DNA of 64,000 bases from an uncultured virus (IMG/VR IMGVR_UViG_651053001_000005) (IMGVR_UViG_651053001_000005:1-64000); one strand, 5' to 3'. Shown: positions 1,229 through 55,771, numbered from the stretch's first letter. Notes: generated by a model from the sequence alone, not told the origin. Made by a program: numbers and translations.

Positions 1229-1287
1229 TATCCTCCACCTCTAATCATCTAATTTTATTTTTACTCTAAATAGAAGACCGATTTTAT

Positions 1288-1443
1288 TTAGAATTCTCTG
1301 TTCTTGAAAATGTCACGATAAGTAAGTCCAGAAATCCCACGATCCTTTTTCGTTTGTTCATTGGCTTCTTTCCAATCATTTTCAGTTAAATTGGAAAACT
1401 TATTTTTAGATAGCTTAGGTTTCTTGACTGCTTTAAGTTTAAT
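1288..1443 (-). CDS. 51-aa basic hypothetical protein with ATT start
   Basis: Open frame IKLKAVKKPKLSK...FKNREF filling the gap after AGGGGG. Confidence 0.45.
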   Translation of the reverse strand: MKLKAVKKPKLSKNKFSNLTENDWKEANEQTKKDRGISGLTYRDIFKNREF

Positions 1444-1447
1444 AAAA

Positions 1448-1618
1448 CTAACCCCCTAAAAATTCTTTAATTTTATTTATGTCATCGGTATTCAAACAAA
1501 TCGACACTTTCTTACTGTACTTCTTGTCTTCAATAGTCATTAAAACATGGTCTCTTCCTTTCTCGAAAATAACTTTATCTTCTTTAGGAAAAGTACGACA
1601 TTTAAAAACTTTTTTCAT
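1448..1618 (-). CDS. hypothetical protein (MKKVFKCRTF...)
   Basis: ORF track; ATGA-coupled start at 1618. Confidence 0.6.
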   Translation of the reverse strand: MKKVFKCRTFPKEDKVIFEKGRDHVLMTIEDKKYSKKVSICLNTDDINKIKEFLGG

Positions 1619-1785
1619 TGAAACAATCCTCCCCAAATTACTCCAGCAGCAACTGCTACAATAATCATTGAAATAAACTTAGCTATTCCAACCCATACCA
1701 TCAACTTCATATTGCCTTCTGAATCCCAATCACCTAACACAACTAGACCAAATGCAATTAACAAAACCCAAGCTGTTACAATCAT
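1615..1785 (-). CDS. 56-aa two-TM membrane protein (YotH-like)
   Basis: Hand-translated MIVTAWVLLIAFGLVV...VIWGGLFQ; abuts the upstream stop codon. Confidence 0.65.
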   Translation of the reverse strand: MIVTAWVLLIAFGLVVLGDWDSEGNMKLMVWVGIAKFISMIIVAVAAGVIWGGLFQ

Positions 1786-2334
1786 CTACTTAGAACCTCT
1801 TTCGACTGTGTAACCACTAGTAATGTCATTTAAGATCGTGCTGCTTGGGGACAGCTTTTCACTCTCAATATCTTTATTTTTAGTGTAATTAATGAAATCC
1901 TCGAACTGGATCAAATACACTCCGTAAGCTGTGTTATTCAATCTTTCAATGGTATCTTCACTAGGTTTAGAAAACCAGCTGTCAGTACCTTGGCCATACA
2001 CTTCAAAAATCTGAATTATCTCGTCCTTATACTCAAAGTAAGCCAGTTTATTTTCAAGTTCACATTCCTCATCAACTGGATTTCCTACATGATTTGTCGC
2101 ATATTCCATCATTGAAGTAAGCATGTAGCCTAATTCAATGTCCGAGAAACTTAACTGTGGTTTAGGTGTTCCATAATAAATATCTGCTTCATTTAGTGAT
2201 CCTCTTTGGTTCACTTCTTTAATGATCTCTTCGATAGCTGTGTAGCCTTCATGAATGATGAATTCCCTACGTTCCTCATCTCTTCGTTTATACTCCTCTA
2301 ATAAACTTGTTACCTTAAACTCTGTATTCTTCAT
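1786..2334 (-). CDS. acidic hypothetical protein
   Basis: ORF track, GGAGG RBS. Confidence 0.7.
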   Translation of the reverse strand: MKNTEFKVTSLLEEYKRRDEERREFIIHEGYTAIEEIIKEVNQRGSLNEADIYYGTPKPQLSFSDIELGYMLTSMMEYATNHVGNPVDEECELENKLAYFEYKDEIIQIFEVYGQGTDSWFSKPSEDTIERLNNTAYGVYLIQFEDFINYTKNKDIESEKLSPSSTILNDITSGYTVERGSK

Positions 2335-2728
2335 CTAATTCCTCCTTGTATGAACCGATTATTTCTGGTATCCGTTGAAAGAAAGTAATAATGCAATCCC
2401 TAGCATCATGTGGGTATTCGCAATCAATTTCGGCACCTGATATGTAAATATCATATTGGATGCTGCATATCAGGTGAGGATTATAGGGTAGCTCGTATTG
2501 TAAATACCTCTTCAAATTAGGTAACTGCTCATTGACAAACTTCAAGAATTTCTTTTCATACTCTGGAACCTGTTCATATAATTTTTTTACATGTTCTTCA
2601 ATTGTGTCGGCTTGCACTTTGTAGAGATTCTCGAACAGTGCTTTGTTGATATCCATAAGTTCACTTAAAGCCTTGACAGCTTTCTCATCTCCGCTAAGGG
2701 TAACTCCCCACCATTTATCCAAATGCAC
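2315..2728 (-). CDS. hypothetical protein
   Basis: ORF track, RBS. Confidence 0.7.
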   Translation of the reverse strand: MHLDKWWGVTLSGDEKAVKALSELMDINKALFENLYKVQADTIEEHVKKLYEQVPEYEKKFLKFVNEQLPNLKRYLQYELPYNPHLICSIQYDIYISGAEIDCEYPHDARDCIITFFQRIPEIIGSYKEELDEEYRV

Positions 2729-2759
2729 TTAATCATCCTTTCTATATAGAATCAACATT

Positions 2760-3014
2760 TTATTCATTCTCCGAAAATTGCCTATTAAAAAGTTCAATCG
2801 CTCTATCATAGGTTGCTAATTGTGCGATGTGTTTGTCAATATTAGTGCCATTTCCCTGTAATCCATCCGAGATATATAATTGCTGATTGTTTTTTAACTT
2901 TGATTCTAAATTATCTAACATGTTACGAATACTTGAAATTTGATTTTCTAATCGCAGTTTAGCCTGTTCTCTTTCTGATTCAAGTATAATTAAGTTTCTA
3001 TTTTCTTTTGTCAT
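2760..3014 (-). CDS. coiled-coil hypothetical protein
   Basis: ORF track, AAGGAG RBS. Confidence 0.7.
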   Translation of the reverse strand: MTKENRNLIILESEREQAKLRLENQISSIRNMLDNLESKLKNNQQLYISDGLQGNGTNIDKHIAQLATYDRAIELFNRQFSENE

Positions 3015-3054
3015 ATTATATTATTCTCCTTCAGTATAAAATTAGAATTTCATT

Positions 3055-4590: not shown

Positions 4591-4755
4591 AGCTCACTAT
4601 CCTTCTCTTTAAAATACAGATTTTATATTAATTTAAAAGTGATCGTTTTCTTTTATCACTGCCTTTCACTCTTGTTTTTTCAAACATTCCGTCGTAAGTC
4701 CAATCATATCCGCTATACTTTTTAAACACCGTCGTCTTCAGGCGGCTATGATACG

Positions 4756-7091: not shown

Positions 7092-7136
7092 ATCGTCACT
7101 CCTATATATTATTTTATTTTTATTCTTAAAGTATGT

Positions 7137-7166
7137 AAAAAAAAGACAAGCTTTTAACTTGTCTTT
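7137..7166 (-). terminator. intrinsic terminator after dfr
   Basis: AAAGACAAG-ttaaaag-CTTGTCTTT followed by a T tract. Confidence 0.75.
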
Positions 7167-7220
7167 ATCTTATCATTCAACTTCTCAAAAGTCTATAACT
7201 ATTTTATTTTTATCCTTAAA

Positions 7221-7727
7221 TTATTTTGAGTAAGTCACAAATGAATAATTAAATGTGGTATTGTTGTCTACTTTTTTGTGATCCTTTTCAATTACTCTCC
7301 AATCGTCATTTAACCTGGGAAAATATGAATCTGCCTTCTCAGCAACTGAATCAACAATCGTCAAATAAACCTTATCAGCATGTGGTAAGAATGCCTCGTA
7401 TATAGCGCCTCCTCCAATTACCATTACTTCTTCATTTGTATCCAGTTGACCACGTATAAGCTTCAACACATCGTCAACCGAATGATAAACGAATGAAGAG
7501 TGATCAGGCTTGAAATCCTTATTTTTAGTCAGTATGATATTCCTTCGGTTCTGAAGTGGTTTTCCTGTAATGTTTACGATTGATTCGTATGTAAGCCTTC
7601 CCTGTATACACAGCTTTCCTGTAGTGAGTTCTTTAAAACGTTTCATGTCTTCAGGAATATTGTACAGCAAATTATTCTCATACCCGATGGCCATTGATTT
7701 GTCGCAGCAAGCAATAAGAGATAGCAT
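7221..7727 (-). CDS. dfrA: dihydrofolate reductase
   Basis: IG-x-EN-x-L...EDMKRFK, GRLTYES, PL..RRNI, VIGGG motifs. Confidence 0.95.
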   Translation of the reverse strand: MLSLIACCDKSMAIGYENNLLYNIPEDMKRFKELTTGKLCIQGRLTYESIVNITGKPLQNRRNIILTKNKDFKPDHSSFVYHSVDDVLKLIRGQLDTNEEVMVIGGGAIYEAFLPHADKVYLTIVDSVAEKADSYFPRLNDDWRVIEKDHKKVDNNTTFNYSFVTYSK

Positions 7728-10555: not shown

Positions 10556-10672
10556 GTTTTTCCTCCTTATTGTTTTAGATAAAAGTCTTCTTTTATTTAG
10601 CCCTTTTTCCTGATTACTGGTATAATATACTTGTCTTAAAATTCTCAATATACGAAAAGGTGGTAATATTTA

Positions 10673-12065: not shown

Positions 12066-12107
12066 TTATTAGCTCCTTTAAATTTAAGTTTGTTTAAAAT
12101 TACCCTT

Positions 12108-12350
12108 TTATCGTAATTCCTTTAATAACAAATCAAGTTCATTGGGCTTAAAACCAATACTTCGGTTTACTTCTTCTCCTTGATCATTCAGCAAAATGGT
12201 TACCGGTACTCCCATAACACCAAATCTAGCTGCCACTTCTGGTTCCTGTGTAACGTCAACTGTCTCAAATTGAATATTTGCTTGTTCTAAGTAATTGGAC
12301 ACCATTTTACATGGATTGCAATTAGGCTGCTCTAATTTAATTACTCTCAT
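12108..12350 (-). CDS. yosR: NrdH/thioredoxin-like redoxin
   Basis: CNPC motif, GVPV cis-Pro; downstream of nrdF. Confidence 0.9.
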   Translation of the reverse strand: MRVIKLEQPNCNPCKMVSNYLEQANIQFETVDVTQEPEVAARFGVMGVPVTILLNDQGEEVNRSIGFKPNELDLLLKELR

Positions 12351-19449: not shown

Positions 19450-19500
19450 TTTACATCTCCTTATTTTTTAATTTCATTTTGAATAAAGCTGTGATTTTAT

Positions 19501-20405: not shown

Positions 20406-20456
20406 GTCTAATCATCTCCTTAAAATCATCCTTTTATGCAGTTTCCAAAAGCTCTT

Positions 20457-20762
20457 TCATTTAGCTTCTCTCCACTCAAAACCGATATTAACGTTTGCTT
20501 GTTTAGGTCTGATAACTTCAACTGTGCTACCTCTGTCAGACAACCTGCTTTTTAATGCCTTCATATCCTTGTATGGCGATATTTGAAAGGAACTCAGATT
20601 GATAAGTATAACTTCATGTTTATCTTTAGCGGCATACTCTCTGTCTAGTGTTCTAACAATGTATACATGAGCATCATTTATTTTAATGAAGTACCCGTCC
20701 TCTATCTCTTTCACCTTCGGCTTATCTGCTTCGTTCTTTCTAATCTTTAAATTTATTGGCAT
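20457..20762 (-). CDS. hypothetical protein, near-identical paralog of 46334..46633
   Basis: Direct sequence comparison. Confidence 0.8.
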   Translation of the reverse strand: MPINLKIRKNEADKPKVKEIEDGYFIKINDAHVYIVRTLDREYAAKDKHEVILINLSSFQISPYKDMKALKSRLSDRGSTVEVIRPKQANVNIGFEWREAK

Positions 20763-20806
20763 TCTCTTCCCCCTTATTTCTATAAAATAAAACTTTTAAT
20801 TAAATC

Positions 20807-22247: not shown

Positions 22248-22284
22248 TTCAGTTGCTCCTTTCACCATAAAAATTGAATTTTAT

Positions 22285-23209: not shown

Positions 23210-23255
23210 TTAACATCTCTCCATTCTAGATAAAAGTAATATTTTATTTTTACTC

Positions 23256-24198: not shown

Positions 24199-24248
24199 AG
24201 GATCGATTCACCTCTTGTATTTTATTTTTACTCTTTAAAAGACAAATT

Positions 24249-25760
24249 TTATTCAGATTCTTTATTAACGTATGTATGTATTAATTCCTTGAATATTGAC
24301 TCAAGTACAGTTACAGTAATTGAATTGCCGGCTTGCTTGTACAACTGCGAATTACTAATTCCCACTGATAAAGCTTTCTCAAAATCTTCTTCATCAAATG
24401 CTTGCAGCCTCCAACATTCTAATGGAGTGAGCTTTCTAATTCTGTATTTTGGGTATTCACCAATTGCTACACCATGACGATCAATTGTATTAACAGTGAA
24501 GGCCGGTTCATCGTCTTCTTTAAAGCGTCTGCCATTTTGTCTTTTTTCTTCCCTTTCTGGAGTTAAGACGGGTCTTATTTCAGGGTTTGGCACAGAAATT
24601 TTCACCCCTTCACCCTTATTTGTTGTTATAGTTGGACTTAGCCCATTTGAATTGTAAACCTGGCCATTCATTCCTTTTCCTGAAGGATTAATATTACCAA
24701 CATACTCAACAGCAATTTTAGGTTCTCTATGACCTCCTCCCATAGTTGTTAATGTTGGTGACACCCCATCAGGCGAGTACACTCTTTTAATTGCATCATG
24801 TCCTTTTAGATCAATGTGACCAATCATGATCGGGTCTTCCACTTTGTATAGCGAAATCTGCCCTCCAAGACCACCTACCGATTGGGATGTCAAAGTTGTT
24901 GCAATGCCATTTGAATCATAGACTCTATTGCCTTGTTTAAAGTTTCTGGAATATGTTTTTCCGTTATTCAGCCACCTCTTTCCTACGTTAATGCCACCAA
25001 CAAACACCACATCTTTTTCTTTTGGTTTTTCAATTTGTTCAATCAGTTTAGATGTTTTTTCTTCGCTTAAGTAATACTTCTCATCTACATATTCCTCAAG
25101 AATTTCTCGCAATCTCTGTCCAACAATATCTTGTGCAGACCATTTAAAATTGAAACTTTTTATATTTAATTCTTTTAATCTCTTTTTTCCCTTACTTAAA
25201 ACATCGTTCCTTCCCTTTTCCAAAACCCATTCGTCATTTTCAATTAGATCTTCTCGAACTCCAATTATGTATATACGCTCACGATTCTGAGGAACATTGA
25301 AAAATTTTGAATTAAGCAGCTCTAGGTCAATTCTGTAACCAACCTCACTAAAAGCTTCTGCCATCACATTCAAGGTGCTGCCTTTATCATGATTAATTAA
25401 CCCTTTAACATTCTCAAAAACAAAGAACTTTGGTTGCTTTTCCTTAAGAGTTTCAATGTATTGAAAAAACAACGTCCCCCTTGTATCTTCAAATCCTTTC
25501 CGATGCCCGGCTACACTAAAGCTTTGACAAGGAGATCCTCCAACTAAAAGATCAAATTCAGGCAAAAACGTTTTATCTATCTTACTTACATCACCGTAGT
25601 TTAGCTGCTCATCAACGTTGTGAATTGCACAATATGACTTAATGGCATACTTATCAATTTCGCTAAAGCCAACCAGTTCATATTCGACCCCAATGTTTCT
25701 TAGCGCAGCTTCAAATGCACCGATTCCACTAAAAAGACTCATTACACGTAGTTTACTCAA
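24249..25760 (-). CDS. mtbP: multispecific C5-cytosine DNA methyltransferase with four TRD-like modules
   Basis: FSGIG, GSPCQSFS, ENV, QNRER, YKQAGNS; repeated VY...G..PTL/TI-T modules. Confidence 0.95.
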   Translation of the reverse strand: MSKLRVMSLFSGIGAFEAALRNIGVEYELVGFSEIDKYAIKSYCAIHNVDEQLNYGDVSKIDKTFLPEFDLLVGGSPCQSFSVAGHRKGFEDTRGTLFFQYIETLKEKQPKFFVFENVKGLINHDKGSTLNVMAEAFSEVGYRIDLELLNSKFFNVPQNRERIYIIGVREDLIENDEWVLEKGRNDVLSKGKKRLKELNIKSFNFKWSAQDIVGQRLREILEEYVDEKYYLSEEKTSKLIEQIEKPKEKDVVFVGGINVGKRWLNNGKTYSRNFKQGNRVYDSNGIATTLTSQSVGGLGGQISLYKVEDPIMIGHIDLKGHDAIKRVYSPDGVSPTLTTMGGGHREPKIAVEYVGNINPSGKGMNGQVYNSNGLSPTITTNKGEGVKISVPNPEIRPVLTPEREEKRQNGRRFKEDDEPAFTVNTIDRHGVAIGEYPKYRIRKLTPLECWRLQAFDEEDFEKALSVGISNSQLYKQAGNSITVTVLESIFKELIHTYVNKESE

Positions 25761-25808
25761 TAAACAACCTCCATATATTTTATTTTTATTCTAAATAAAA
25801 TTGATCTT

Positions 25809-26645
25809 TTATTTAGAATTTGCGTACCCTCTAAGTCTTTCGTTTGCAATCTCAATATATTTTGCTTCAGTTTCAAATCCAATCCATTTCCTCCCAAGCA
25901 TCTCACTTGCAATTGCAGTTGTCCCGCTCCCCATAAACGGGTCTAACACAACTTGCCCTTCATTAGTGAATGCTTTTATAAAAAACTCAGGAAGTTCCAC
26001 TGGAAATACTGCTGGATGTTTAGATTGTAATGTGTATTGGTTTGATTTTTGTGGAATATGTAAGTGGTTTGATGGTAACGCCAAACTCCTGTTAACCATG
26101 GTTTCATTTCTTCTCATGCCAGCAAATCCGCTTCCGTTTTTAGTAAGACCCGTCGCTTTTCGATTAGCTCTTTTTAAGCTTTCTTCTTTCATCGGAACGC
26201 CAACTGCATATGGATTAAAAACAATTTCGCTTGATTTTGCAAAGTGGAAAATTGGTTCGAACCCATTTTTAAAGCGACCTTTAAAACGACCAGGGACTCC
26301 ATTTTTTGTCCAGGTAAATTCATCAACAAACCTCCAGCCTAGTTCTTTCTTCAGCGCGATTACTAATTCATAAACATATAATTCACGCTCACCCTTTGAA
26401 CAATGTGATTTAATGTTTATAAAGAAACTTCCGGAAGGCTTCAATACTCTATAAAGTTCTTTAGCAATAGGAATAAACCAATTCACATACTCACTAGTTT
26501 TAATAGACTTATATTCTCCCTCTCTTCTATCTGCATATGGTGGGCTGGTTACAATTAAATCGATACTTTCATTTTTTAGTTCCTTTAATCCATCTAAGCA
26601 ATCTATCTTATAAATTTCATTAAATTTTAATTCGTTTATTTTCAA
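25809..26645 (-). CDS. beta-class amino (N4-C/N6-A) DNA methyltransferase
   Basis: TSPPY motif IV before HPAVFP and DPFMGSGTT motif I. Confidence 0.92.
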   Translation of the reverse strand: MKINELKFNEIYKIDCLDGLKELKNESIDLIVTSPPYADRREGEYKSIKTSEYVNWFIPIAKELYRVLKPSGSFFINIKSHCSKGERELYVYELVIALKKELGWRFVDEFTWTKNGVPGRFKGRFKNGFEPIFHFAKSSEIVFNPYAVGVPMKEESLKRANRKATGLTKNGSGFAGMRRNETMVNRSLALPSNHLHIPQKSNQYTLQSKHPAVFPVELPEFFIKAFTNEGQVVLDPFMGSGTTAIASEMLGRKWIGFETEAKYIEIANERLRGYANSK

Positions 26646-26769
26646 AAGCCTCTTCCTTTCTCTATAAAAGAGATATTTTAATCAGATTCACAAACACTTC
26701 ACACATTTCAAATATTTAACATGCTAGACTGGAGTTGTAATCACAATCAAAACCTAGGAGGTAATTCTT

Positions 26770-28576: not shown

Positions 28577-29284
28577 CTAACTAATAATCGAGATTGTCCC
28601 ACTTTGTTTACCAAAATTAACTGCGTCACGCTCGGTTGCTACGAGCAAGTCCACTTTATTTCCAACAATTGCGCCACCAGTATCAATTGCTATTGCTTTA
28701 AATGTTCTCCCACCAATTCTTACTTCAACTATTGAATTCAATGGAATAACACTTGGATCAGTTGCAATTACACGATACCCTTTGTAATAGATTGATTGAG
28801 TGACATTAACACCTGTTCTAGTTGTTCCTGTGCATCCTTCTTGGCAGTGGGCAATATAAGCACTCAGCTTAACCTGGATGGTTTTCTTTGCGGCCGGTGG
28901 CTTGTTTTCTTTTTCTTCAATACTAATTTTATTTTTATTCTTAAAAAGTTTATGCTTTACCGTCTCACCTCCCTTCCTGTGCCTTTTCTTACTTTGCTTA
29001 GGTTTAATGAGTTTTGCTGAGATAATCTTCTCTGTATGCCTTTTTAATTGTTGTTCTTTGTTCGTTTGAGCTTTTTTAAATAGCCGTGAGACAATATTCT
29101 CACTTGATGGTATCCTAATCTGTCTAGGCTTCTTATAAAATGATTCTTTTATCGAGTTTTCATTTCCCTCGGTTTTATGTAAATGCTGCTCATAACTTAT
29201 GTAAGAAAAAGTGGTTAAGGGAATTAAAATCATCATACCATAAACAGACTTGAAAATGCGTGTTTTTATTTTATTTTTATCCAT
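28577..29284 (-). CDS. yorM: membrane-anchored 3D-domain (lytic transglycosylase-like) protein
   Basis: SAY...IATDP.VIPL.S...A.DTGGAI.GN.VDL. Confidence 0.88.
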   Translation of the reverse strand: MDKNKIKTRIFKSVYGMMILIPLTTFSYISYEQHLHKTEGNENSIKESFYKKPRQIRIPSSENIVSRLFKKAQTNKEQQLKRHTEKIISAKLIKPKQSKKRHRKGGETVKHKLFKNKNKISIEEKENKPPAAKKTIQVKLSAYIAHCQEGCTGTTRTGVNVTQSIYYKGYRVIATDPSVIPLNSIVEVRIGGRTFKAIAIDTGGAIVGNKVDLLVATERDAVNFGKQSGTISIIS

Positions 29285-36119: not shown

Positions 36120-36134
36120 AGGGTGCTACACCCC

Positions 36135-37649: not shown

Positions 37650-37663
37650 ATGGACTCTCCTTC

Positions 37664-38134
37664 CTATAATGTTGAGATGTCAACAAGTCCCCTTTTCTTT
37701 CTCAATCCCTTTTTTATTATTAACGTGATCTCTTCTCTTTTGTGATTCTTAGGGTCTTCGGCTGATTTTTGGATTGCCTTTTGTTTTATGTAATGTCGCT
37801 TAGCCTCGTCATATACAAAAGGGACGATTCCAATACCATCGCCTTCTCTTGGAAGATTCTCCAGTGTTTCATAAAAGTACTTAAGCGCAAGCTCGATTCC
37901 TTTTAGCTTATACCCATATTCCTCTTGAAACTCTTTGATCTGTTTTAGCATCATACCTGTCGGAGATGCAAGACCATATAAGCTGCATATGTATTGAAGT
38001 AACTCTTTTCGATGATCTGCCTCTTGTCTCCACGTGTTGAAGCACTGTTCATGGTAGTATCTTTTTTTATAAGGAATCGCTAAATCTTTATCTAATTTAG
38101 TCTCACAATATGGACATTTGACTTGTCTTCCCAA
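37664..38134 (-). CDS. yorH: Zn-binding replication-associated protein
   Basis: CPYC...H..C; synteny. Confidence 0.75.
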   Translation of the reverse strand: MGRQVKCPYCETKLDKDLAIPYKKRYYHEQCFNTWRQEADHRKELLQYICSLYGLASPTGMMLKQIKEFQEEYGYKLKGIELALKYFYETLENLPREGDGIGIVPFVYDEAKRHYIKQKAIQKSAEDPKNHKREEITLIIKKGLRKKRGLVDISTL

Positions 38135-38174
38135 ATAATCACCCCTAATAAGGAGGAGGGAATAACCCCCCAGT

Positions 38175-39146: not shown

Positions 39147-39235
39147 TTAAACTCTCCTTTAATTTTGATTTGATGGGTGAGTCAAAGCCCACCCCCAGTT
39201 ATGTATTTTCATTTAAACTATTTTATTTTTATCTA

Positions 39236-40150
39236 TTAAAAAGGGAGTTCATCATCTGAAATTTCAACCGGCTTTGAAGGCTTGTTATTAGGAGCGCTTC
39301 CTCCAAACCCAGACTTTTTATCGTTTTCTTTATTTCCTTCTTTCTTCAGCTCATCTAGGTAAATCTCTCTTTCAGTCAACGCTTTTTTAATTGCATCTGC
39401 CTTAAAAGCATTTTTGCTATCCTCGTCATATGGATCATTGCCACCTGTAATTAGGTACTCTCTTTTCGAATTAGTAGTGATTTCTTTCTTGTCTTCGCCA
39501 AATGCTGCTGTTTTGGTCGTTACTTTTTGCTCTTTAAAGTTAATAATCTTTCCAAAAACGTTAACCGTAGACCCTTTTTCATAATTATTTTCAACGTATT
39601 GAGACCCTTCTTTTGTGACTACAAATTCAAAAGGAATTACTTTCCCACCATATAAAGGAATATAACCATTTAAATTAACTCTGCCCGTTTCTTCACCTTT
39701 TACTTTCTCTTCGGTTACATTCTTTACAAACAGCTCAACATCAAATTCAGCTCTTGGATTGAATTCTTCATTGGCATCTAGCCTGTTTACAAAATTAGTT
39801 GTTAATTGTGGGTATGATTTGAAAATCCCTTGGGCGTAATATTCGTTCAATCCAATCTTTCCTTGGGTAATTCTCACTTTATCAGCTTGCTCTCTCCCAT
39901 GTTCTGCAATCGATTTATACTCCTTAATAATAGTTTGGTAGCCTTTTGCGATAGCATTGTCGGTGCCGTCATCTTTCTTATACTTTGAAAAGCCTTTTAC
40001 TGTATGCACTTCATTTGGTGCAACCTCAATATCTAGTTCAATATTTAGCCCTTTACCACTTTTCCACTCAGTGTGTTTTACCTCAGCAAGTGTCCCCTCA
40101 ATAGTTACAACATTTGATGCTTCACGTAATACTGTTTTATTTTCTGCCAT
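39236..40150 (-). CDS. yorF: single-stranded DNA-binding-like protein
   Basis: Acidic C-terminus DDELPF; start MAENKT after AGAGG. Confidence 0.8.
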
Positions 40151-40172
40151 GTAAATAATCAACCTCTTCCTT

Positions 40173-40553
40173 TTAATTATTAATTTTATTTTTATTCTTA
40201 AAATGTCTATAATGAGACTTGCTACTAAACTTACAATCCTTGATACCAAGTAGCTCATTTAATTCTATGTATCTCTTTTTTGGAAAGTCCCAAGGTTCAG
40301 GATCACCTTTTACATTTTCAATTCTTATTACTGTTCCATGCCGAATTGTGATCTTTAAGTTTCCATATGAGTATGTTTTTGAAAAAAGACCTCTTTTAAT
40401 TCCTTGTGGTTTAAATTCCTTTACCAACATCACATTCCTGGTTAACTTTCTTCTTGCTTGATCTTCGTCAATGTCGTAATTCCTTTTGACATCGTTCTTG
40501 TAGTTATGCAGAGCTTTTGCTGATACTTTCAATATCTTTAATTCCTTTTTCAT
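40173..40553 (-). CDS. yorE: hypothetical protein
   Basis: Synteny; first gene after the SPBRE promoter. Confidence 0.7.
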
Positions 40554-40586
40554 CTCTTTCCTCCTTTCTCTCTTTGGGATAACTTA

Positions 40587-40645
40587 ATCTTACATCATCA
40601 AAACGAAACGGTCAACAACTATTTTATTTTTATTCTAAAAAGTTT
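40587..40645 (-). promoter_or_regulatory. sigma-A promoter of the replication operon with SPBRE-like element
   Basis: TTGACC-N17-TAAGAT preceded by TTTAGAATAAAAATAAAATAG. Confidence 0.8.
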
Positions 40646-40691
40646 TAAAAAGAGTTGAGCTGCAGATAACAGCTCGACAGAGTGCTTAACT

Positions 40692-41075
40692 TTAGCTGGG
40701 AAAGTTGTTAACCCTTTTAAGGTGGTTATCCATATGTTTTAATATATGAAGTTTTTCATTAAAATTCATATATTCTTCTTTAGTAATTTTCTTTGCTAAT
40801 TGATATTGACGTGAATCTAATTGAACTTTATGTCCGAGTTTATCTTTAATAATTACGTGTTTAACATTAAAAATCTTGTATACTTCATAAAAGGAGTTCA
40901 TATCTAGATCATCATATTTGTTTGCACCATTGCCACTTTCTTTAATTCTGTTACCATCATTGTCTATACGTCGTGTATCGATTGGCTTCACAAAATCACC
41001 CAATCGAGGTCTTCTATTAAGAGTTTGAAAGTAAACCGTTTCACCGTGCTCGTTTTTTGCTGTTAAGAAGTTCAT
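40692..41075 (-). CDS. hypothetical protein
   Basis: ORF track, AAGGAG RBS, downstream terminator 40647-40678. Confidence 0.7.
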   Translation of the reverse strand: MNFLTAKNEHGETVYFQTLNRRPRLGDFVKPIDTRRIDNDGNRIKESGNGANKYDDLDMNSFYEVYKIFNVKHVIIKDKLGHKVQLDSRQYQLAKKITKEEYMNFNEKLHILKHMDNHLKRVNNFPS

Positions 41076-41116
41076 TTGCTTCTCCTTTATCGACGATATT
41101 TTTTAGAATACCTCAT

Positions 41117-41144
41117 AAAAGAAGAGCCGCTTAAATAGCAACTC
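41117..41144 (-). terminator. intrinsic terminator closing the mini-ORF unit
   Basis: GAGUUGCU-auuua-AGCGGCUC-UUCUUUU. Confidence 0.7.
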
Positions 41145-41159
41145 AAAATGTTTATCTTA

Positions 41160-41183
41160 TTAGCCTCCCACTCTAACTCCCAT
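41160..41183 (-). CDS. mini-ORF MGVRVGG
   Basis: GGAGG-N7-ATG GGA GTT AGA GTG GGA GGC TAA TAA. Confidence 0.55.
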   Translation of the reverse strand: MGVRVGG

Positions 41184-41186
41184 GAC

Positions 41187-41213
41187 TCAGCCTCCAATAG
41201 AATTGATGGACAT
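41187..41213 (-). CDS. mini-ORF MSINSIGG
   Basis: TGgTATAAT (41237-41245), AAGGAG-N7-ATG TCC ATC AAT TCT ATT GGA GGC TGA. Confidence 0.6.
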   Translation of the reverse strand: MSINSIGG

Positions 41214-41266
41214 AATACCACTCCTTTATTAATTCAATTATACCATTTACAAAGGAGTTTGAATAA

Positions 41267-41644
41267 TCAAATAACCTCACTCCAAGACCACATGTTCATT
41301 GTTTGCAGCGTAAACCCATCAGGAAGCTTTTTCATTTTAACATTCACATTGTATCTCTTCCCAGTAGTCTTATGGATCACAGCAAGTTCTTCACCATCAT
41401 AGAACCGCACAATTGCTTCATTAAATTCAATTGGCTGATCAACCACATAACCTTCTTTAAGCGCTCTGATATACAGATAAGGGTCTGTCTTATAAAGCTC
41501 ATATAGTCTATTACCAAAGTCTTCGTGTTTATCTCTAAGCAGATTAAAATTAATCAGGGATATGTACAGTTTTTCAGATATGTTCAGCTTGTTCTTGAAA
41601 TACCGGATTGCTTCATCTTGTTCTTTGGTTAAAATATTGGCCAT
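41267..41644 (-). CDS. yorC: hypothetical protein
   Basis: Synteny, recalled sequence. Confidence 0.65.
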   Translation of the reverse strand: MANILTKEQDEAIRYFKNKLNISEKLYISLINFNLLRDKHEDFGNRLYELYKTDPYLYIRALKEGYVVDQPIEFNEAIVRFYDGEELAVIHKTTGKRYNVNVKMKKLPDGFTLQTMNMWSWSEVI

Positions 41645-41682
41645 ATATCCATCTCCTAAACTTGTTAAAACTACAGTTTTAT

Positions 41683-44584: not shown

Positions 44585-44640
44585 AGTACGATTTGTTCTA
44601 TCTATATTGCTTCACTCCATTCCTCTATAAAATATCGTTT

Positions 44641-44913
44641 TTATTCAGTTTCTTTTCTTACCCATTTTCTAACCTTAACTTCCTTAAGCTCAACTTCAAA
44701 ACACTCAACCTGGTCATCGTATTCCCACGGTCTCTCCTCTTGTAACTCTGTAGCGCCTTCCCTGTAAGTTGTCTCATAAAACTTGTCTTGATATGCAAAC
44801 ACAATACGATAATGAATACTCCACCTAGACGTATCAGTGATTTCTTCTAAAATTGAGGATTCAGGTAGCCCCAATTCATTTACCATGTAATCTTTGTCCA
44901 ATTTAATTTTCAT
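44641..44913 (-). CDS. conserved phage hypothetical protein
   Basis: RWS...G.TE.QE..P pattern. Confidence 0.7.
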   Translation of the reverse strand: MKIKLDKDYMVNELGLPESSILEEITDTSRWSIHYRIVFAYQDKFYETTYREGATELQEERPWEYDDQVECFEVELKEVKVRKWVRKETE

Positions 44914-45793: not shown

Positions 45794-45838
45794 ATTTCCC
45801 CTTTTTAATTTTATTTTTATCCTTATAAAATCTCTGTT

Positions 45839-46318
45839 TTATTTAGATTCGAAAAGCTCAGTATCTTCGTAAATATTACCGATTACTTCATAACTGATGA
45901 CAGTCGGGTCTGATTCGCTTTTTAACCAACTCAAAGCATTCATCTCACAATCAATCCAAGGCCTTAAATCAAATGCTGGATAGTTTTCGCTATCCAAGAA
46001 TTTAACTTCTCCAACGTAATAAGGTTCTTCAGCCCATGTGGTGTCGAAAGTAATCCGAATTATATCCCCTTCATAAATCTCCTTGCCGTTATTGTCCTTC
46101 AATCCGGTGTATTGTCGAACCGCTTTCAAACTTTTATCAGCAAACGAATATTCATCACCGTCTTTATCTGTAACGTAATCTATTTTTCCGTTATCAAAAG
46201 AAATGTCATGAACATCAATAATTTCTTCGTAACTGTCTATACCTGCCCAATGCATATTAGAACCCAAATTGCTTAATGCATGTTTAACTACCAACGCCTG
46301 AAATTTAATATCTCTCAT
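45839..46318 (-). CDS. YopX-family protein
   Basis: MRDIKF, QYTGLKD.NGKEIYEGDI, EVIGNIYE. Confidence 0.9.
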   Translation of the reverse strand: MRDIKFQALVVKHALSNLGSNMHWAGIDSYEEIIDVHDISFDNGKIDYVTDKDGDEYSFADKSLKAVRQYTGLKDNNGKEIYEGDIIRITFDTTWAEEPYYVGEVKFLDSENYPAFDLRPWIDCEMNALSWLKSESDPTVISYEVIGNIYEDTELFESK

Positions 46319-46333
46319 TCTCTCCACCTCCTG

Positions 46334-46633
46334 TTATTGTCTCCGCTCAAAACCGATATTAACGTTTGCTTGTTTAGGTCTGATAACTTCAACTGTGCTA
46401 CCTCTGTCAGACAGCCTACTTTTTAATTCCTTCATATCCTTGTATGGCGCTATTTGCAAGGTGCTCAGATCGATAAGAATAACTTCATGTTTATCTTTAG
46501 CGGCATACTCTCTGTCTAGTGTTCTAACAATGTATACATCAGCATCATCTATTTTAATGAAGTACCCGTCCTCTAAATCTTTCACCTTTGGCTTATCTGC
46601 TTTGTTCTTTCTAATCTTTAAATTGATCGCCAT
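46334..46633 (-). CDS. hypothetical protein, near-identical paralog of 20457..20762
   Basis: Direct sequence comparison. Confidence 0.8.
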
Positions 46634-46856
46634 TATTCTCACATCCACTTATTTTATTTTTATCAAATAAATCGATTATGTAGGCTTCGTACATCTCATC
46701 CCAATAAGGATCTGTTCTTGCTATGTATTTCTTTGCTTTTCCATTCTCCTCAATTTTAAAGGTTTGCCCCTTTTGGATATCCGTGAACTTCTCCTTTGTC
46801 CATATACCTCTAATCAACACTTCAACTTCTTTTACCTCAACTGTTTGCCGCTGCAT
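46611..46856 (-). CDS. hypothetical protein ([11 protein letters not shown]...)
   Basis: AAGGAGG RBS. Confidence 0.65.
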
Positions 46857-48898: not shown

Positions 48899-48992
48899 AA
48901 ATAAATCACATCCTTTAAAATAACTATTTTATTTTGATCCCATAATAATCACCAAATATTTTAGCCCACAAAATCATTTAGAATATTCTCAT

Positions 48993-50175: not shown

Positions 50176-50217
50176 TGTCCCTAACTCCCCCATTTCATTT
50201 TAAAAACTATCTTTTAT

Positions 50218-50469
50218 TTAGACCTTCTCATAAGTCTGATGAAATATGTCAGGTTTACAAGGATAAAACTCACCTTGGACTCCTTTAATAACAAAATCAT
50301 TAGGCGAAACGATCATACTGCCTTCTAAAGTTTGTATATGACGCATTGTTGTAAGTAAATCATGCCAGATACCAACTACATCACCGCAGAATTCCCGTAA
50401 TTCATCATAAGAATCTTGTGATCCGTCATATTGGATAGCATCAACTTCAACTGGTTTTTTATATTTCAC
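50218..50469 (-). CDS. PGDYG-like phage protein
   Basis: KKPV.V.A.Q, TLEG.M, GEFYPCKPDIF..TYE. Confidence 0.8.
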   Translation of the reverse strand: MKYKKPVEVDAIQYDGSQDSYDELREFCGDVVGIWHDLLTTMRHIQTLEGSMIVSPNDFVIKGVQGEFYPCKPDIFHQTYEKV

Positions 50470-50512
50470 TTCCCACCTCTTCCTTTAAAATCACGAGTTT
50501 ATTTAGATTTAG

Positions 50513-50728
50513 TTATGTAATTTCATTTAAGTTTTCGTATTTAGTAAGCTCATCAATCACTCTTTCCATTTCAGCTATAGACATTTCTTTGAAATTTGGT
50601 GCATATCCTAAGACCTTAGCTAAAAACCAACGCTTTTCTTTCAGGCTATTAAAACCTAATCGTTTAAATTCTTTGGATAATTTTCTTCTCAGCACAGGGA
50701 AATAACCTAGTGTAGTGTATACGATCAC
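50513..50728 (-). CDS. hypothetical protein
   Basis: ORF track, AGGAGG RBS. Confidence 0.65.
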   Translation of the reverse strand: MIVYTTLGYFPVLRRKLSKEFKRLGFNSLKEKRWFLAKVLGYAPNFKEMSIAEMERVIDELTKYENLNEIT

Positions 50729-50845
50729 TTAATTTTACCTCCTGAAAAATCTGTTATTTTAATTTAACTTTAATGTGGATCACCTTGAGAAAATCCCCTT
50801 TAATTGGTAAACTCATACCTAACTTACATACGAGTGGGTGATTCC

Positions 50846-51788: not shown

Positions 51789-51819
51789 ACTCCCACCTCA
51801 TTTCATTGAAATAATCCTT

Positions 51820-52212
51820 TTACACAAATATTAATGTAGGCTCCTTGTCCTCTTCATATCGTTCGTATCCAATAAAATAATGATCGTAGTCCTTTTGAAT
51901 ATATGATGAAATCCAGTCGATGAATTTTTCAATCTCATCATCGTAGTTTTTTAAATTACATCTAATACTTACATAACAACCACCAACAACAGCGTCATTT
52001 TCAATTTTGCTATGGGTTTTCCCATCGAAATAATAACTATCTGATTGAAGCATCCATTTCCATCTAGTATCTTCAGAAAACAGATTATGTTCTGGCAACT
52101 CACTTGGATGTTCATCTCTTTGACCAGTCATAAACTCTAAAATTTCAATTATTGATCTTGGTGTTTCCTCAATAAGCTTAAAAGCACAAACCAATTCAGT
52201 ATACATTCCCAT
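51820..52212 (-). CDS. conserved phage hypothetical protein
   Basis: MGMYTE..., LKNYD.EIE.F.DWI, G..RYEE. Confidence 0.75.
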   Translation of the reverse strand: MGMYTELVCAFKLIEETPRSIIEILEFMTGQRDEHPSELPEHNLFSEDTRWKWMLQSDSYYFDGKTHSKIENDAVVGGCYVSIRCNLKNYDDEIEKFIDWISSYIQKDYDHYFIGYERYEEDKEPTLIFV

Positions 52213-52244
52213 TAATATATCTCCCTCTCTTTAAAACAGTCTTT

Positions 52245-52439
52245 TTATTGAAAATATTTATCTGATGTGCGGGCCATGTCTTCCCCGCCTAAATAGTTTT
52301 TTATTTCATTTAAGCTATAAATGACCTTATCGAATTTATCCCTAATGTGCAGTGCATATTCAACTGATGAATCAGACATCCCTAATTCCTTTAGATTTGT
52401 GTCTAATTCTTTAAAGTAGCCTTGTAACTTTACGTTCAC
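52245..52439 (-). CDS. hypothetical protein
   Basis: ORF track. Confidence 0.6.
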   Translation of the reverse strand: MNVKLQGYFKELDTNLKELGMSDSSVEYALHIRDKFDKVIYSLNEIKNYLGGEDMARTSDKYFQ

Positions 52440-52487
52440 TAAAAACTCTCCTTTTTTATTGAATTCTTTTCTTATTAAACTTCAATT

Positions 52488-52751
52488 TTATTTTGATTTA
52501 ATCTCAACAATTAGACTGTCAGGATAGTTCTTCAAATCAAGTGCGTTTACATGACAGTGACCTACATATCCTTCTTTATCAACGTAATTATAATAAAACT
52601 TTTCCCCATTATTAATGATAACTTCACCCTGATGTGTATACTCCATCTCTGATCCCTTGTACCATGTTACTTTAACTTTTGTGCCAGGTATGATTTTATT
52701 TAAATCAAATATTGTTATTTCTTTTAGCAAAATCATTTCCTCCATTTCCAT
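52488..52751 (-). CDS. hypothetical protein
   Basis: ORF track; start uncertain. Confidence 0.6.
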   Translation of the reverse strand: MEMEEMILLKEITIFDLNKIIPGTKVKVTWYKGSEMEYTHQGEVIINNGEKFYYNYVDKEGYVGHCHVNALDLKNYPDSLIVEIKSK

Positions 52752-52777
52752 TTTCCACTCTCTATAAAATTTTACTT

Positions 52778-53128
52778 TTATCCAAACTGCTTTCTCCAAG
52801 GGACGTTGCCCACAACACTGTGATCAAGCATTTCTTCGCAACTTTTACACAGGGTTGATTTTGTTATTGTCATATGGAAGGAGTCCCACTTACCACAACA
52901 GTGACACGTATTCTCAAATGCTGCTGATTCCTTCTGTTTTTTTCTTTCAGAGCCGTTGCCAGTTAACAATAGGCCGTTACTATAAAGGTCGTTCTGTCTT
53001 ACTTCTGCTTCTACACTCCATGGGTATATTCGCTTCTTTAAGTGCCTTTGCACTAACGACTCGCTTCGGCTATTTCCAATCTTCATGAACTCTCTATTTG
53101 CAGTAAGGTCAACTGTTCTTTTCATCAC
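52778..53128 (-). CDS. Cys-rich hypothetical protein
   Basis: CHCC..CKSC. Confidence 0.7.
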   Translation of the reverse strand: MMKRTVDLTANREFMKIGNSRSESLVQRHLKKRIYPWSVEAEVRQNDLYSNGLLLTGNGSERKKQKESAAFENTCHCCGKWDSFHMTITKSTLCKSCEEMLDHSVVGNVPWRKQFG

Positions 53129-53856: not shown

Positions 53857-53872
53857 CTTTTCACTCCTTTAC

Positions 53873-54109
53873 TTAATCTAATTCCCTCATGTCCTCCCGC
53901 TGCTCAATATAACTTTTAAAGTCCTCCCATTCCCTATCGATTTCTTTAATATTCCTAGCAATATAGCTTTCTGCAATGTCTGGATCAACCAACTTTTGAA
54001 GAGACAGCTGATACATAAATTCAATCTTTGACACTGTTTCTAGAAATGACTGGGCATAACTTTTTGCTCTATTTAAGCGATATTGACTCATTCCATGTTT
54101 TGATTCCAT
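53873..54109 (-). CDS. hypothetical protein
   Basis: ORF track, AAGGAG RBS. Confidence 0.65.
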   Translation of the reverse strand: MESKHGMSQYRLNRAKSYAQSFLETVSKIEFMYQLSLQKLVDPDIAESYIARNIKEIDREWEDFKSYIEQREDMRELD

Positions 54110-54149
54110 TATTATTCTCACTCCTTTTAATCACATTAAAATGCATCTT

Positions 54150-54668
54150 TTATTTAGTTCCATTGGTGATTTCTTTTTCTAATAACGTTTGCACTCTCTT
54201 AATCTCTTCAATGGAATGTACAGTACCTCCGGTGTTTAATTCAATATACCATTGAAGAACATCTGCTTTAGTTGGGAGATCATTAATGACAAACTCCAAA
54301 CTGATTAAATTGCTCAAAGTGTCTTCAAACTGATTGTAAAAGTGATCAAATGCTTTGATTTCATTGTTTAGGAACCTCAAACATGCCGTTATCCTTTGTA
54401 AACCATCCACACATACAAAGTCTCCTTGAAAATCCCTCATCCATCCTTTTTGGTTAAGGAAAATGGGATTTGTTTTACCTCCTTTTAAAAGATGTTCTAC
54501 AAATTTAATTTGCTGCTCTTCAGTCCATACATGCCCTCTTTGAAAATCAGGGTTAAGTTGTAGACCTTCCTCAATATATCTTTCAATTGCACTTTTAAAA
54601 TGCCTTAATGAGTGATGAACTCTATAACTGCCGTCTTTTGTGTATGGCACTATATCTTTGAACTTCAT
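54150..54668 (-). CDS. stand-alone DUF262 (ParB/Srx-fold, GmrS-like) protein
   Basis: P.FQRG.VW, VDGLQR, LN.GG. Confidence 0.85.
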   Translation of the reverse strand: MKFKDIVPYTKDGSYRVHHSLRHFKSAIERYIEEGLQLNPDFQRGHVWTEEQQIKFVEHLLKGGKTNPIFLNQKGWMRDFQGDFVCVDGLQRITACLRFLNNEIKAFDHFYNQFEDTLSNLISLEFVINDLPTKADVLQWYIELNTGGTVHSIEEIKRVQTLLEKEITNGTK

Positions 54669-54835
54669 TCCACGTCCTCCTTCTTTTCACCGACCCGATC
54701 AATGAAAATATGTTCGTAATCTTCATGTGCTTCATCATAATGACCGAGGATGAACCTTACACACTCTGCGTTGTCTCCCGACTGAAAAACGGTTTCATTA
54801 TTTCTTTCATCATAAACACGATATTTTTCACTCAT
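54665..54835 (-). CDS. 56-aa acidic protein MSEKYRVYDE...
   Basis: ATGA coupling at both ends. Confidence 0.65.
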   Translation of the reverse strand: MSEKYRVYDERNNETVFQSGDNAECVRFILGHYDEAHEDYEHIFIDRVGEKKEDVE

Positions 54836-55236
54836 TCCGCACCCTCCAATAACTCAGGATTTTCAAAAACGTTTCCGACAACCTCAATTTCATCAAGTCG
54901 ATACCATAAGAATCTATCCAATTGGCCCTTTTTGCTGACATGGTTCATTCTGTCGATACCTTTCCGTCTCTCAATAACATAACGGTCAACAACATTTTCT
55001 TTGAGTAAAGGATTCATATACGATTCCTCAGTAATATCCTTTTGGTATATATCCTTCCCTTTCTTGTCCTGTAGCCCTGTTCCCCACATGAGAACAGCGC
55101 AAGCTGTTTTATTGCTCGTGATGAATTTTCCTTTGCGGTATAAATACCAATTTCCATCTTCAATATTCAGGCTTATCCCCTCGTCATCCCAATGATGCAT
55201 TTTCTCGCCGTCCCACACTCTGTGCGCTGTGTTCAT
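54832..55236 (-). CDS. yopX: YopX-family protein
   Basis: RVWD, TGL.DK.GKDIY..DI, EVVGNVFENPELL. Confidence 0.9.
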   Translation of the reverse strand: MNTAHRVWDGEKMHHWDDEGISLNIEDGNWYLYRKGKFITSNKTACAVLMWGTGLQDKKGKDIYQKDITEESYMNPLLKENVVDRYVIERRKGIDRMNHVSKKGQLDRFLWYRLDEIEVVGNVFENPELLEGAE

Positions 55237-55514
55237 AATTTCCGTGCCTCCTTTGGGTTTTCGTCACACATTTCTTTTAGTGCCTCCACAAATTCTTTTT
55301 CACACATATTCAACGGCGTATACCACTTTATCACTTCATGAAACGGATGGAGATAATTTACCAATGTATCTTCAGCATCTTCCTTTCCTTTTGTTGTCCC
55401 AGTGAAATTATTCAAATAGTCTTCACGCGTCATATTTATGTGCGTCGGACAGTCAACCACTGAACTAAATCGGCAGTACCGTCCATTCGGCTGCTTAGCG
55501 ATTAATGCGCCCAT
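55233..55514 (-). CDS. conserved phage hypothetical protein
   Basis: QPNG.YCRFSSVVDCPTH.NMT. Confidence 0.75.
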   Translation of the reverse strand: MGALIAKQPNGRYCRFSSVVDCPTHINMTREDYLNNFTGTTKGKEDAEDTLVNYLHPFHEVIKWYTPLNMCEKEFVEALKEMCDENPKEARKL

Positions 55515-55546
55515 GTTATTCCCCCTTATCTTAATCTCTATAAAAC

Positions 55547-55771
55547 TTACATTTTATTTTTATTCTTAAAATAACCGTGCTGATTTACAACATCTCCAAG
55601 TATGTATTGTATTTCCTCTAAATTGTCTTTAACGAAATCTAGATCTCCAATTGCCATTCTGATTTCATTATTCTCTATGCTGCGTAAAGACCTTTCACAT
55701 GATACTAAGAGCTTTGTATATTTCCTTAAAACCATAGTTCTTATTTGATCGTTAATTGGTTCATTAATCAA
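55547..55771 (-). CDS. hypothetical protein
   Basis: ORF track; first gene after the SPBRE promoter. Confidence 0.65.
   Translation of the reverse strand: MINEPINDQIRTMVLRKYTKLLVSCERSLRSIENNEIRMAIGDLDFVKDNLEEIQYILGDVVNQHGYFKNKNKM

Follow-up and report, generated by a model that had tools for sequence, protein, structure and literature searches.

Introduction

How tailed phages exchange unrelated genes at exact gene boundaries is a long-standing open question. The promoter-early stem-loops (PeSL) of T4-type phages are short repeats that lie between small non-essential early genes, at the places where related phages differ by insertion, deletion or replacement (PMC2839356). Here we describe a palindrome, WTAAAA-N6-TTTTAT, that also lies between genes and marks such changes, in an SPbeta-like Bacillus phage represented by a stretch of 64,000 nucleotides (the window) out of the 87,371-base record of an uncultured virus (IMGVR_UViG_651053001_000005). 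The window comprises the early-gene and lysogeny part of the phage, with genes mainly on the minus strand, and its named relatives match it in patches, at 76-95% identity. The variable early region punctuated by the palindromes is the one in which relatives have annotated counter-defence genes such as Gad1. The palindromes, of which the same 16-mer recurs between different gene pairs in different phages, offer a concrete and testable answer in a well-studied Bacillus subtilis model phage.

How do the palindromes compare with elements described so far? A PeSL combines a sigma-70-like promoter with a terminator hairpin, and its copies are near-identical, such that any two can recombine (PMC2839356). 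The palindromes, in contrast, are neither promoters nor terminators, their predicted hairpins are weak, and each has its own centre; therefore, only allelic copies share 16-18 bases. In heterospecific lox/FRT cassette exchange, the arms are identical and the centres differ, only like sites recombine, and two sites bracket the cassette. This is an engineered tool, and for the palindromes a rule of centre identity is only a proposal by analogy; to our knowledge, no natural system with dozens of heterospecific lox/FRT-like sites has been described. The pdif sites of Acinetobacter plasmids use the XerC and XerD recombinases of the host and have two unlike arms. They form dif modules, in which many recombinase-type sites with a 6-base centre flank accessory genes in varied contexts (PMC6449649). 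Here the differences are that the palindromes have symmetric arms, that the phage encodes Xer-like proteins of its own, and that the sites are allelic and collinear between genomes.

Integron attC sites, with their conserved core GTTRRRY / RYYYAAC, resemble the palindromes in lying at cassette boundaries, in overlapping stop codons and in their association with a tyrosine recombinase, but all defining features that we tested fail, as detailed below. Another comparison is with the stoperators of cluster A mycobacteriophages, which follow the direction of transcription and vary from one immunity group to the next. They are dozens of protein-binding sites scattered along the genome in short intergenic gaps, asymmetric and bound by the immunity repressor (PMC9283540), whereas the palindromes are symmetric and the same across immunity types, being identical in phages whose MrpR, YopP and YopQ proteins are about 30-40% identical. 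Finally, SPBRE is a repeated intergenic element of SPbeta-like phages whose binder has a tyrosine-recombinase fold (PMC10516654, PMC4191935); it has another sequence, occurs in about ten promoter copies as against 30-40 junction copies of the palindrome, and is specific to the immunity type. No description of the palindrome was found in the SPbeta literature searched, which comprised parts of the papers, passages of two SPbeta overviews among them, and did not extend to the 1999 genome paper; the SPbeta GenBank record annotates stem-loops over two of the sites (2622-2651 and 116406-116431).

A palindrome with a fixed centre length at gene junctions

The first-pass annotation of this DNA had pointed out WTAAAA-N6-TTTTAT palindromes at gene junctions, with a spacer of always 6 bp, and both observations were confirmed. 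In the window, the exact motif, WTAAAANNNNNNTTTTAT, has 29 strand matches at 20 places where 0.43 are expected; the largest shuffle yielded 4, and none of 100 shuffles reached 29. With at most one mismatch there are 57 matches (9.18 expected). When the spacer in TAAAA-Nk-TTTTA is varied over the range 0-14, 21 sites are found at k=6 and 0-4 at each other length; N6 alone is enriched. The 26 positions listed at the time comprise 19 exact sites, six with one mismatch and one (51806) with two, and they lacked an exact site at 29135 and a TAAAA-N6-TTTTA at 36306, both inside open reading frames (ORFs).

Gene junctions were taken from a crude gene call of the 87-kb contig, with 152 genes and 151 junctions. 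At these junctions fall 33 of the 41 sites with at most one mismatch in the whole contig, 21 such junctions having gaps of 25-60 bp. Most sites occupy short intergenic gaps of about 30-50 bp, and most are at co-directional junctions, where they lie 15-25 nt 5' of the next start codon and an arm can hold the upstream stop codon; others lie between divergent or convergent genes (1270, 10579 and 26664) or within ORFs. The ten stops that had been named as lying in arms (2760, 12108, 24249, 25809, 44641, 45839, 52245, 52488, 52778 and 54150) are indeed low ends of minus-strand ORFs and do fall within an arm, and the absence of sites between core replisome genes was likewise found again, with zero junction sites in the replisome block (29311-40258). 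That single genes are bracketed on both sides also held when checked, except that the flank at 51806 is only a weak site.

In each arm of a site, 5-6 bases are strictly conserved and a weaker symmetry extends to about 11 bases; the arms enclose the fixed 6-base centre, and T-Y-T-R-A-ATAAAA-N6-TTTTAW-W-N-A-R-A is the gene-strand consensus including its weak extension. The symmetry of the arms reaches positions -4 and +23, and the sites are perfect palindromes of 18-28 bp. They thus show the build of lox/dif-type sites, inverted symmetric arms around a fixed centre of 6-8 bp. In 20 of 43 sites, A stands at position 1 as well as at position 18, such that base pairs do not covary and mismatches go uncompensated, which points to recognition by a protein and not to folding.

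The same feature bears on the notion that the sites function in the mRNA, as hairpins or protein-binding RNA 5' of the next ribosome-binding site that would serve processing, stability or translational control. Their distance to the next start codon, the upstream stop in the arm and the prevalence of co-directional junctions would suit such a role. However, 18 of 19 folded sites have predicted energies between 0 and -4.5 kcal/mol, only six of the 19 reach z <= -2, divergent and convergent gene pairs and ORFs contain sites too, and the conservation of centres between unrelated flanks would go unexplained, which renders an RNA element very improbable. A stable hairpin is predicted for the 25795 site alone (-11 kcal/mol). 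Sigma-A promoters and intrinsic terminators were also rejected, as neither is in excess or systematic at the sites (47 promoter-like against 56.4 expected, 8 terminator-like against 6.9), and so was a promoter for YonO, for which one start site, upstream of yonK, is reported (PMC5467207).

Centres are allelic and flanks were exchanged at the sites

The spacer had at first been described as variable in sequence, which is true within a genome but not between phages, where the same position keeps the same centre. In seven genomes, 231 sites carry 72 distinct centres, none of them twice in one genome, and shared centres are fully collinear in all 21 genome pairs. Where two genomes share a centre, the 200-bp flanks are alike on both sides in 149 pairs, on one side in 151 and on neither side in 119; chance sharing of such pairs is estimated at about 14. 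For the window, the 16-mers of site plus centre were compared with seven reference phages. An identical 16-mer exists in at least one of them for 18 of 21 sites, and of the 81 shared pairs, 45 have unlike DNA on both sides, 18 on one side only and 18 on neither side.

The centre AGACTG (52231) may serve as an illustration. In the window and six relatives it joins five different left and six different right flanks as judged by eye, breaking exactly at the edges of the 16-18-mer; automated clustering yields three left and five right flank classes. Of 38 centres present in at least three genomes, 24 have more than one left-flank class and 25 more than one right-flank class, and 12 combine same-left/different-right with same-right/different-left patterns, TTAGAA having all four combinations. 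Such patterns at 12 of 38 sites argue for repeated exchange at the site itself. In line with this, 27 ends of homology blocks fall inside a site where random placement would give 3.5, and 65 come within 30 bp where it would give 15; the ends cluster at the outer site edges. The contigs of independent public runs, which show presence only, contain eight joints with at least 200 letters on the shorter side, and 6 of the 16 ends of these lie in sites (50495, 51809, 52231, 52486, 52767 and 54152). No well-supported circle-type joint was found among these contigs.

With identical 16-mers between unrelated flanks, and replaced segments of public runs ending at sites, the comparison supports the gene shuffling that the first-pass annotation had envisaged; judged by such comparison, the present-day junctions would be recombination products joined at the site. 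Thus, the sites are very probably DNA elements that are recognized by a protein and at which adjoining genes have been exchanged again and again between related phages.

Less has remained of the suggestion that this shuffling is integron-like, with attC-type sites on single-gene cassettes and an integron-type integrase. The bracketing of single genes, the overlap of stops with sites and a tyrosine recombinase encoded nearby, a YopP-like protein, had spoken for it. However, this protein scores 29.5 bits with the NCBIfam model TIGR02249, for which the cut-off is 265, and the other candidate recombinase, YomM, does not match that model. GTTRRRY lies within 40 bp of 3 of 26 sites, with 4.3 expected, and the sites are perfect palindromes of 18-28 bp. 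They are distributed genome-wide, late genes included, and no attI, promoter platform or single array beside an integrase was seen. Moreover, centres that are both allelic and collinear fit replacement in place, not capture at one end. We therefore regard an integron as extremely unlikely.

Distribution of the palindrome among phages

The six SPbeta-like phages SPbeta, L4, L2, phi3T, BUCT083 and SPR have 34, 40, 35, 30, 34 and 35 N6 sites, and 0-5 at other spacings. In SPbeta they are spread across the whole 134-kb genome, late genes included, and in the window they range from 1270 to 55540, in several junction orientations. Further afield, N6 sites number 31 in Goe14 (reversed-pattern control, 2), 30 in Geobacillus virus E3 (7), 28 in Mammaliicoccus phi36 (1), 33 in FADO (1), 18 in Skywalker (3), 17 in Staphylococcus SPbeta-like 2 (8) and 14 in 6ec (6, with a mean of 2.7 at other spacings). 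Enrichment is weak in Lactococcus P1048 (8, control 1); Ldl1 has 4 (3), vipetofem 7 (3), and SPO1, K, SPP1, SP10 and 0305phi8-36 have 0, 4, 0, 1 and 0 (0, 4, 2, 0 and 0). As in the window, it is N6 only that is enriched in E3, phi36, FADO, Skywalker and 6ec. A scan by form only, for any five-base arm followed by its reverse complement at spacings of 4-9, places the palindrome at the top in SPbeta, FADO, phi36, E3 and 6ec, where TAAAA-N6 ranks first among its forms; in Skywalker this form comes second (18), behind the frame-shifted ATAAA-N8 (21). The motif is unchanged across immunity types and across several Bacillales hosts.

The nearest full-length relative of the window is C23, a 133-kb contig with 24 sites. 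This SPbeta-like contig of 36% GC stands in the genome record of a Streptomyces sp. and encodes a polymerase 98% identical to that of the window; it is probably foreign DNA within that assembly.

Candidate readers of the sites

What could act at these sites? We tentatively propose, at somewhat less than an even chance, that a phage Xer/Cre-like tyrosine recombinase exchanges DNA between palindromes with matching centres. In this scenario, a two-fold symmetric phage protein would bind the double-stranded sites, each of which has a private centre inherited at a fixed genome position. Related phages or prophages in one cell could then exchange DNA precisely at matching sites, with identity of the centre being required for strand exchange, as in heterospecific lox sites, and two exchanges at different sites would swap the intervening genes while leaving gene order undisturbed. 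The catalyst would be encoded by the phage, most plausibly the YopP-like protein of the window and, as second choice, YomM or the protein that takes its slot.

The YopP-like protein (59537-60595, minus strand) is a Xer-type tyrosine recombinase by its Pfam Phage_integrase match (E 2.8e-14) and a candidate reader of the sites. Its catalytic Arg, HxxR and GH align to XerC-like, XerA and XerD structures, although a phmmer search against solved structures gave nothing at E 0.001 and weak Xer alignments at E up to 5. The nucleophile Tyr is conserved in nine of nine aligned family members, and the window copy retains all of Arg, HxxR, His and Tyr. Each of the 12 tested phages with strong or clear enrichment (the six SPbeta-likes, the window, C23, E3, phi36, FADO and Skywalker) has a homolog, as does the weakly enriched P1048. 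None was found in Ldl1, vipetofem, SPO1 or phage K, all four of which are without the motif.

YomM of SPbeta (40301-41302) is 97.6-100% identical across the six SPbeta-like phages, and its N-terminal half resembles Cre (E 0.002). Together with YomI, YorJ, YorK and YorL, it is one of five SPbeta proteins common to all six distant motif phages. Its family conserves Arg, His and Tyr, with HxxR in FADO, Skywalker, P1048 and 6ec and HxxK in SPbeta, E3 and phi36; the YopP family alternates likewise, with Lys in place of the second Arg in SPbeta, phi36, FADO, Skywalker and P1048. As sole reader, YomM is weakened by its absence from C23 and by the YomM-like genes of Ldl1 and vipetofem, which lack the motif.

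In C23, the late-region yomM slot (33141-34157) is taken by a different tyrosine recombinase (Pfam E 4e-21), barely related to YomM, with which it shares 24% identity across 124 residues, and with kin in Alicyclobacillus, Clostridioides, Lysinibacillus and Staphylococcus phages. The spread of these kin argues for replacement by a distantly related recombinase at a fixed position. As a reader in its own right, this type was rejected, as the phages of its relatives, KKP_3916 and LC76P1, have just 2 and 4 sites. Overall, the YopP-like protein appears to fit the distribution of the motif best, and YomM or its late-region slot-mate second; this is a correlation within related phages, not proof.

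Could the phage supply the sites only, and the XerC/XerD-type recombinases of the host act on them, as on the pdif sites of Acinetobacter? The 6-base centre and the overall size of about 11-6-11 match Xer sites, and the motif is common to phages of several Bacillales hosts. Xer sites, however, have two unlike arms where those of the palindromes are symmetric, and the five phages of comparable hosts that lack these recombinase genes (SPO1, K, SPP1, SP10 and 0305phi8-36) are unenriched. A role of the host enzymes alone is accordingly improbable.

A further protein with a tyrosine-recombinase fold is the master repressor MrpR (YopR), for which the palindromes could be operators, given that it binds a repeated element in SPbeta (PMC10516654) and that three SPbeta palindromes adjoin SPBRE elements. 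Its homolog in the window, a MrpR/YopR-like protein (57107-58090, minus strand; Pfam MrpR_C_cat and MrpR_N_CB; 32% identical to SPbeta YopR), is mentioned for context and not as a reader of the palindromes. The ten ChAP-seq peaks of MrpR lie without exception at SPBRE promoters, and the 15-bp motif derived from them corresponds to SPBRE (PMC10516654). SPBRE as the identity of the palindrome was rejected, as it is a different word, found upstream of 9 of 10 MrpR-bound SPbeta genes (not yorM). This word is absent from the window, with 2 weak matches and 1.57 expected; as the MrpR homolog is present, the operator of this immunity type must be a different sequence. The palindrome, in turn, is identical in phages whose MrpR is about 30% identical (YopP, YopQ and YopR, 30-39%). 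Dimeric repressor operators, the alternative raised by the first-pass annotation, thus find no support for MrpR/YopR, with its other target sequence and a palindrome unchanged across immunity types, and we consider operators of MrpR a most remote prospect. The binder is likely to be a dimeric DNA-binding protein other than MrpR/YopR.

Site-specific exchange or incidental homology

A number of observations weigh against reading the palindromes as recombinase sites. Breakpoints occur at 23 of 33 motif junctions and at 37 of 62 non-motif junctions with gaps of at least 25 bp (p=0.38), the difference becoming apparent only against all non-motif junctions (55 of 118, p=0.03). The expectation that breakpoints between related genomes map to the motif is borne out for block ends inside sites, but motif junctions are no commoner as breakpoints than other true intergenic junctions. 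Of the 410 block ends, no more than 65 come within 30 bp of a palindrome, and many other breakpoints fall inside genes, as in the methyltransferase gene and the nrd region, or coincide with copies of a second junction motif, described below. Intervals between sites are only slightly more all-or-none than others, with intermediate homology in 47.9% of them versus 53.8 +/- 4.9% of intervals between non-motif junctions and 64.1 +/- 3.4% at shifted positions. With alleles assigned from the flanks only, 5.25% of positions differ in centres and 5.96% in flanks; centres thus diverge about as fast as flanks, which leaves no clear extra selection on them. Duplicate centres number 0 among 386 sites, with 3.8 expected, or 1.59 in 7 independent lineages (P(0)=0.2), which is near chance and hence no evidence that duplicates are avoided. 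Laboratory hybrids of phi3Ts and SPbeta crossed over in identical stretches of 1,365, about 4,850 and 18,196 bp, that is, by ordinary homologous recombination; four of the six ends of these shared stretches are at sites, but with all crossovers in long identical stretches, the hybrids are uninformative on site-specific exchange.

The candidates themselves add further difficulties. For a tyrosine recombinase, the strictly conserved part of the arms is short, and it is from sequence that we infer both binding of the palindrome and catalysis, whichever recombinase is considered. SPbeta YopP and YomM both have Lys for the second catalytic Arg (HxxK). As a single misfit, 6ec has the motif (14 versus 2.7) without a YopP homolog, while C23 maintains its 24 sites with no YomM, and relatives of its replacement recombinase occur without the motif. 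Finally, the co-occurrence of recombinase and motif is confounded by shared ancestry, because the replication genes YorJ, YorK and YorL co-occur as well.

Much of this would be accommodated if the sites were docking sites, maintained at gene junctions, of a phage protein that is no recombinase, whether it acts in transcription or replication, as a roadblock or in an architectural role. Exchange would then be incidental, with general or phage single-strand-annealing recombination using the 16-18 identical bases as sole shared homology, as in linker or PeSL-type models. The near-equal use of non-motif junctions as breakpoints, the ordinary recombination in the laboratory hybrids and the flank-like evolution of centres are all compatible with this. 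In addition, copies of the second junction motif and of SPBRE are likewise isolated conserved islands and breakpoints (a scan for such islands was usable only at 18 bases or more, k=14 being swamped by chance matches), three SPbeta sites adjoin the SPBRE promoters at aimR, yorE and yosX, and SPbeta YorG is annotated as a Sak4-like annealing protein. Yet 16-18 bases are very short for homologous exchange, while many independent events converge on the same sites. Moreover, the sites are not associated with promoters or terminators, their motif does not change with immunity type or host, and no candidate regulator tracks it, with only YomI, YomM, YorJ, YorK and YorL universal in the profile. Docking with incidental exchange is the main rival, a real possibility though a somewhat less probable one than exchange by a recombinase.

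If, instead, a phage recombinase reads the palindromes, they would represent a new natural use of site-specific recombination and a tool for in-register phage engineering. In its broadest form, a natural cassette-exchange system would operate in SPbeta-like and the wider large Firmicute siphophages, with 20-40 sites per genome, common arms, private centres and a phage Xer/Cre-like reader, a generalization that we hold possible though unlikely. Co-resident phages and prophages could then swap accessory genes in register, neither requiring homology between genes nor scrambling their order. Should no recombinase be involved, the palindrome would still be a family-wide protein-binding signal, undescribed in those parts of the SPbeta literature that were searched.

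Sites along the window

At the left end of the window, the sites at 1270..1287, 2746..2763 and 3036..3053 have one mismatch each; the first lies between convergent genes, and the other two bracket ORF 2760..3014. The exact site at 4609..4626 occupies a 37-bp gap between two minus-strand genes, and its 16-mer is found in three of the seven references, twice with neither flank alike and once with one. That at 10579..10596, exact and between divergent genes, recurs in C23 only, with unrelated flanks. At 12094..12111 (exact), an arm includes the stop of ORF 12108..12350, and the 16-mer is present in six of seven references with both flanks alike.

At 19483..19500 (one mismatch), homology blocks to five phages run just beyond the far edge of the site, stopping 20 bases from its first base. 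The exact sites at 20420..20437 and 20782..20799 bracket ORF 20457..20762, and their 16-mers occur in five and in all seven references, respectively, with neither flank alike in any. A direct repeat of 298 nt, in which window positions 20466-20763 and 46337-46634 are 93% identical, duplicates a small early gene; it is the first copy that these two palindromes bracket. At 22267..22284 (exact), homology blocks of L4, L2 and BUCT083 begin right with the site, at its base 0 or +1, and its 16-mer is found in six of seven references with mixed flanks, and at 23230..23247 (exact), blocks of L4 and L2 end at its last base. The centre of the latter was not found in the seven references, nor was that of the exact site at 41665..41682.

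The exact site at 24235..24252 contains in its arm the stop of the methyltransferase ORF 24249..25760, and its 16-mer is in all seven references, five times with both flanks alike and twice with one. The arms of the exact site at 25795..25812, the one with the stable predicted hairpin, extend to 12 bp, and homology blocks to five phages end 16-26 bases from its first base, at or just past the far edge. An exact site between divergent genes follows at 26664..26681. Two sites lie inside genes. The exact one at 29135..29152, within ORF 28577..29284, is common to BUCT083 and C23, with both flanks alike. The TAAAA-N6-TTTTA at 36306-36323 in the replicative helicase gene (yorI in SPbeta) has a counterpart at the corresponding position of SPbeta, L4 and phi3T, differing by two changes in the centre, and may be conserved through the protein sequence of the helicase rather than as a site.

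Further right, the exact sites at 44627..44644 and 45825..45842 hold the stops of ORFs 44641..44913 and 45839..46327 in their arms, and at the former, homology blocks to five phages start inside the site. At the exact site 48915..48932, a contig piece of the public run X15 ends at 48939. ORF 50218..50469 is bracketed by an exact site at 50200..50217, with its 16-mer in six of seven references and neither flank alike in any, and by one with a single mismatch at 50485..50502, inside which a joint from 50495 to 50756 starts in runs X13 and X14. The weak site 51806..51823, with its two mismatches, and the exact site 52231..52248, which carries AGACTG on the gene strand, bound a piece of run X15 (51807-52250) that has no differing letters relative to the window, as compared with 27 differences in the adjoining piece. 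In run X14, a replaced segment ends at 52231, and joints end at 52486 and 52767, in the sites 52474..52491 (one mismatch) and 52764..52781 (exact). The exact site 54136..54153 has the centre GATGCA, and its 16-mer is in all seven references, five times with neither flank alike; a replacement in run X14 starts here, at 54152. The exact site at 55540..55557 is the final one ahead of the lysogeny module.

A second junction motif and neighbouring genes

A second repeated motif, on the gene strand roughly AGAATAAAAATAAAAT, occurs at junctions just 5' of ribosome-binding sites. It has at least nine copies, at 7101-7143, 7191-7233, 23492-23534, 28916-28958, 34780-34822, 40173-40215, 40611-40653, 55831-55873 and 63064-63106, and sometimes directly follows a palindrome (1270, 24235, 25795 and 45825). 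It is common to SPbeta as well, and its copies, too, are isolated conserved islands and are found at breakpoints.

At the right end of the window, there are four lysogeny genes, which code for the MrpR/YopR-like repressor and the YopP-like recombinase described above, for a DndB-like YopQ (58111-59460) and for AimR (61858-62997). The methyltransferase gene mentioned above (24249-25760) codes for a multispecific cytosine methyltransferase and has internal breakpoints at about 24574-25615 relative to six phages, which look like a swapping of target-recognition segments.

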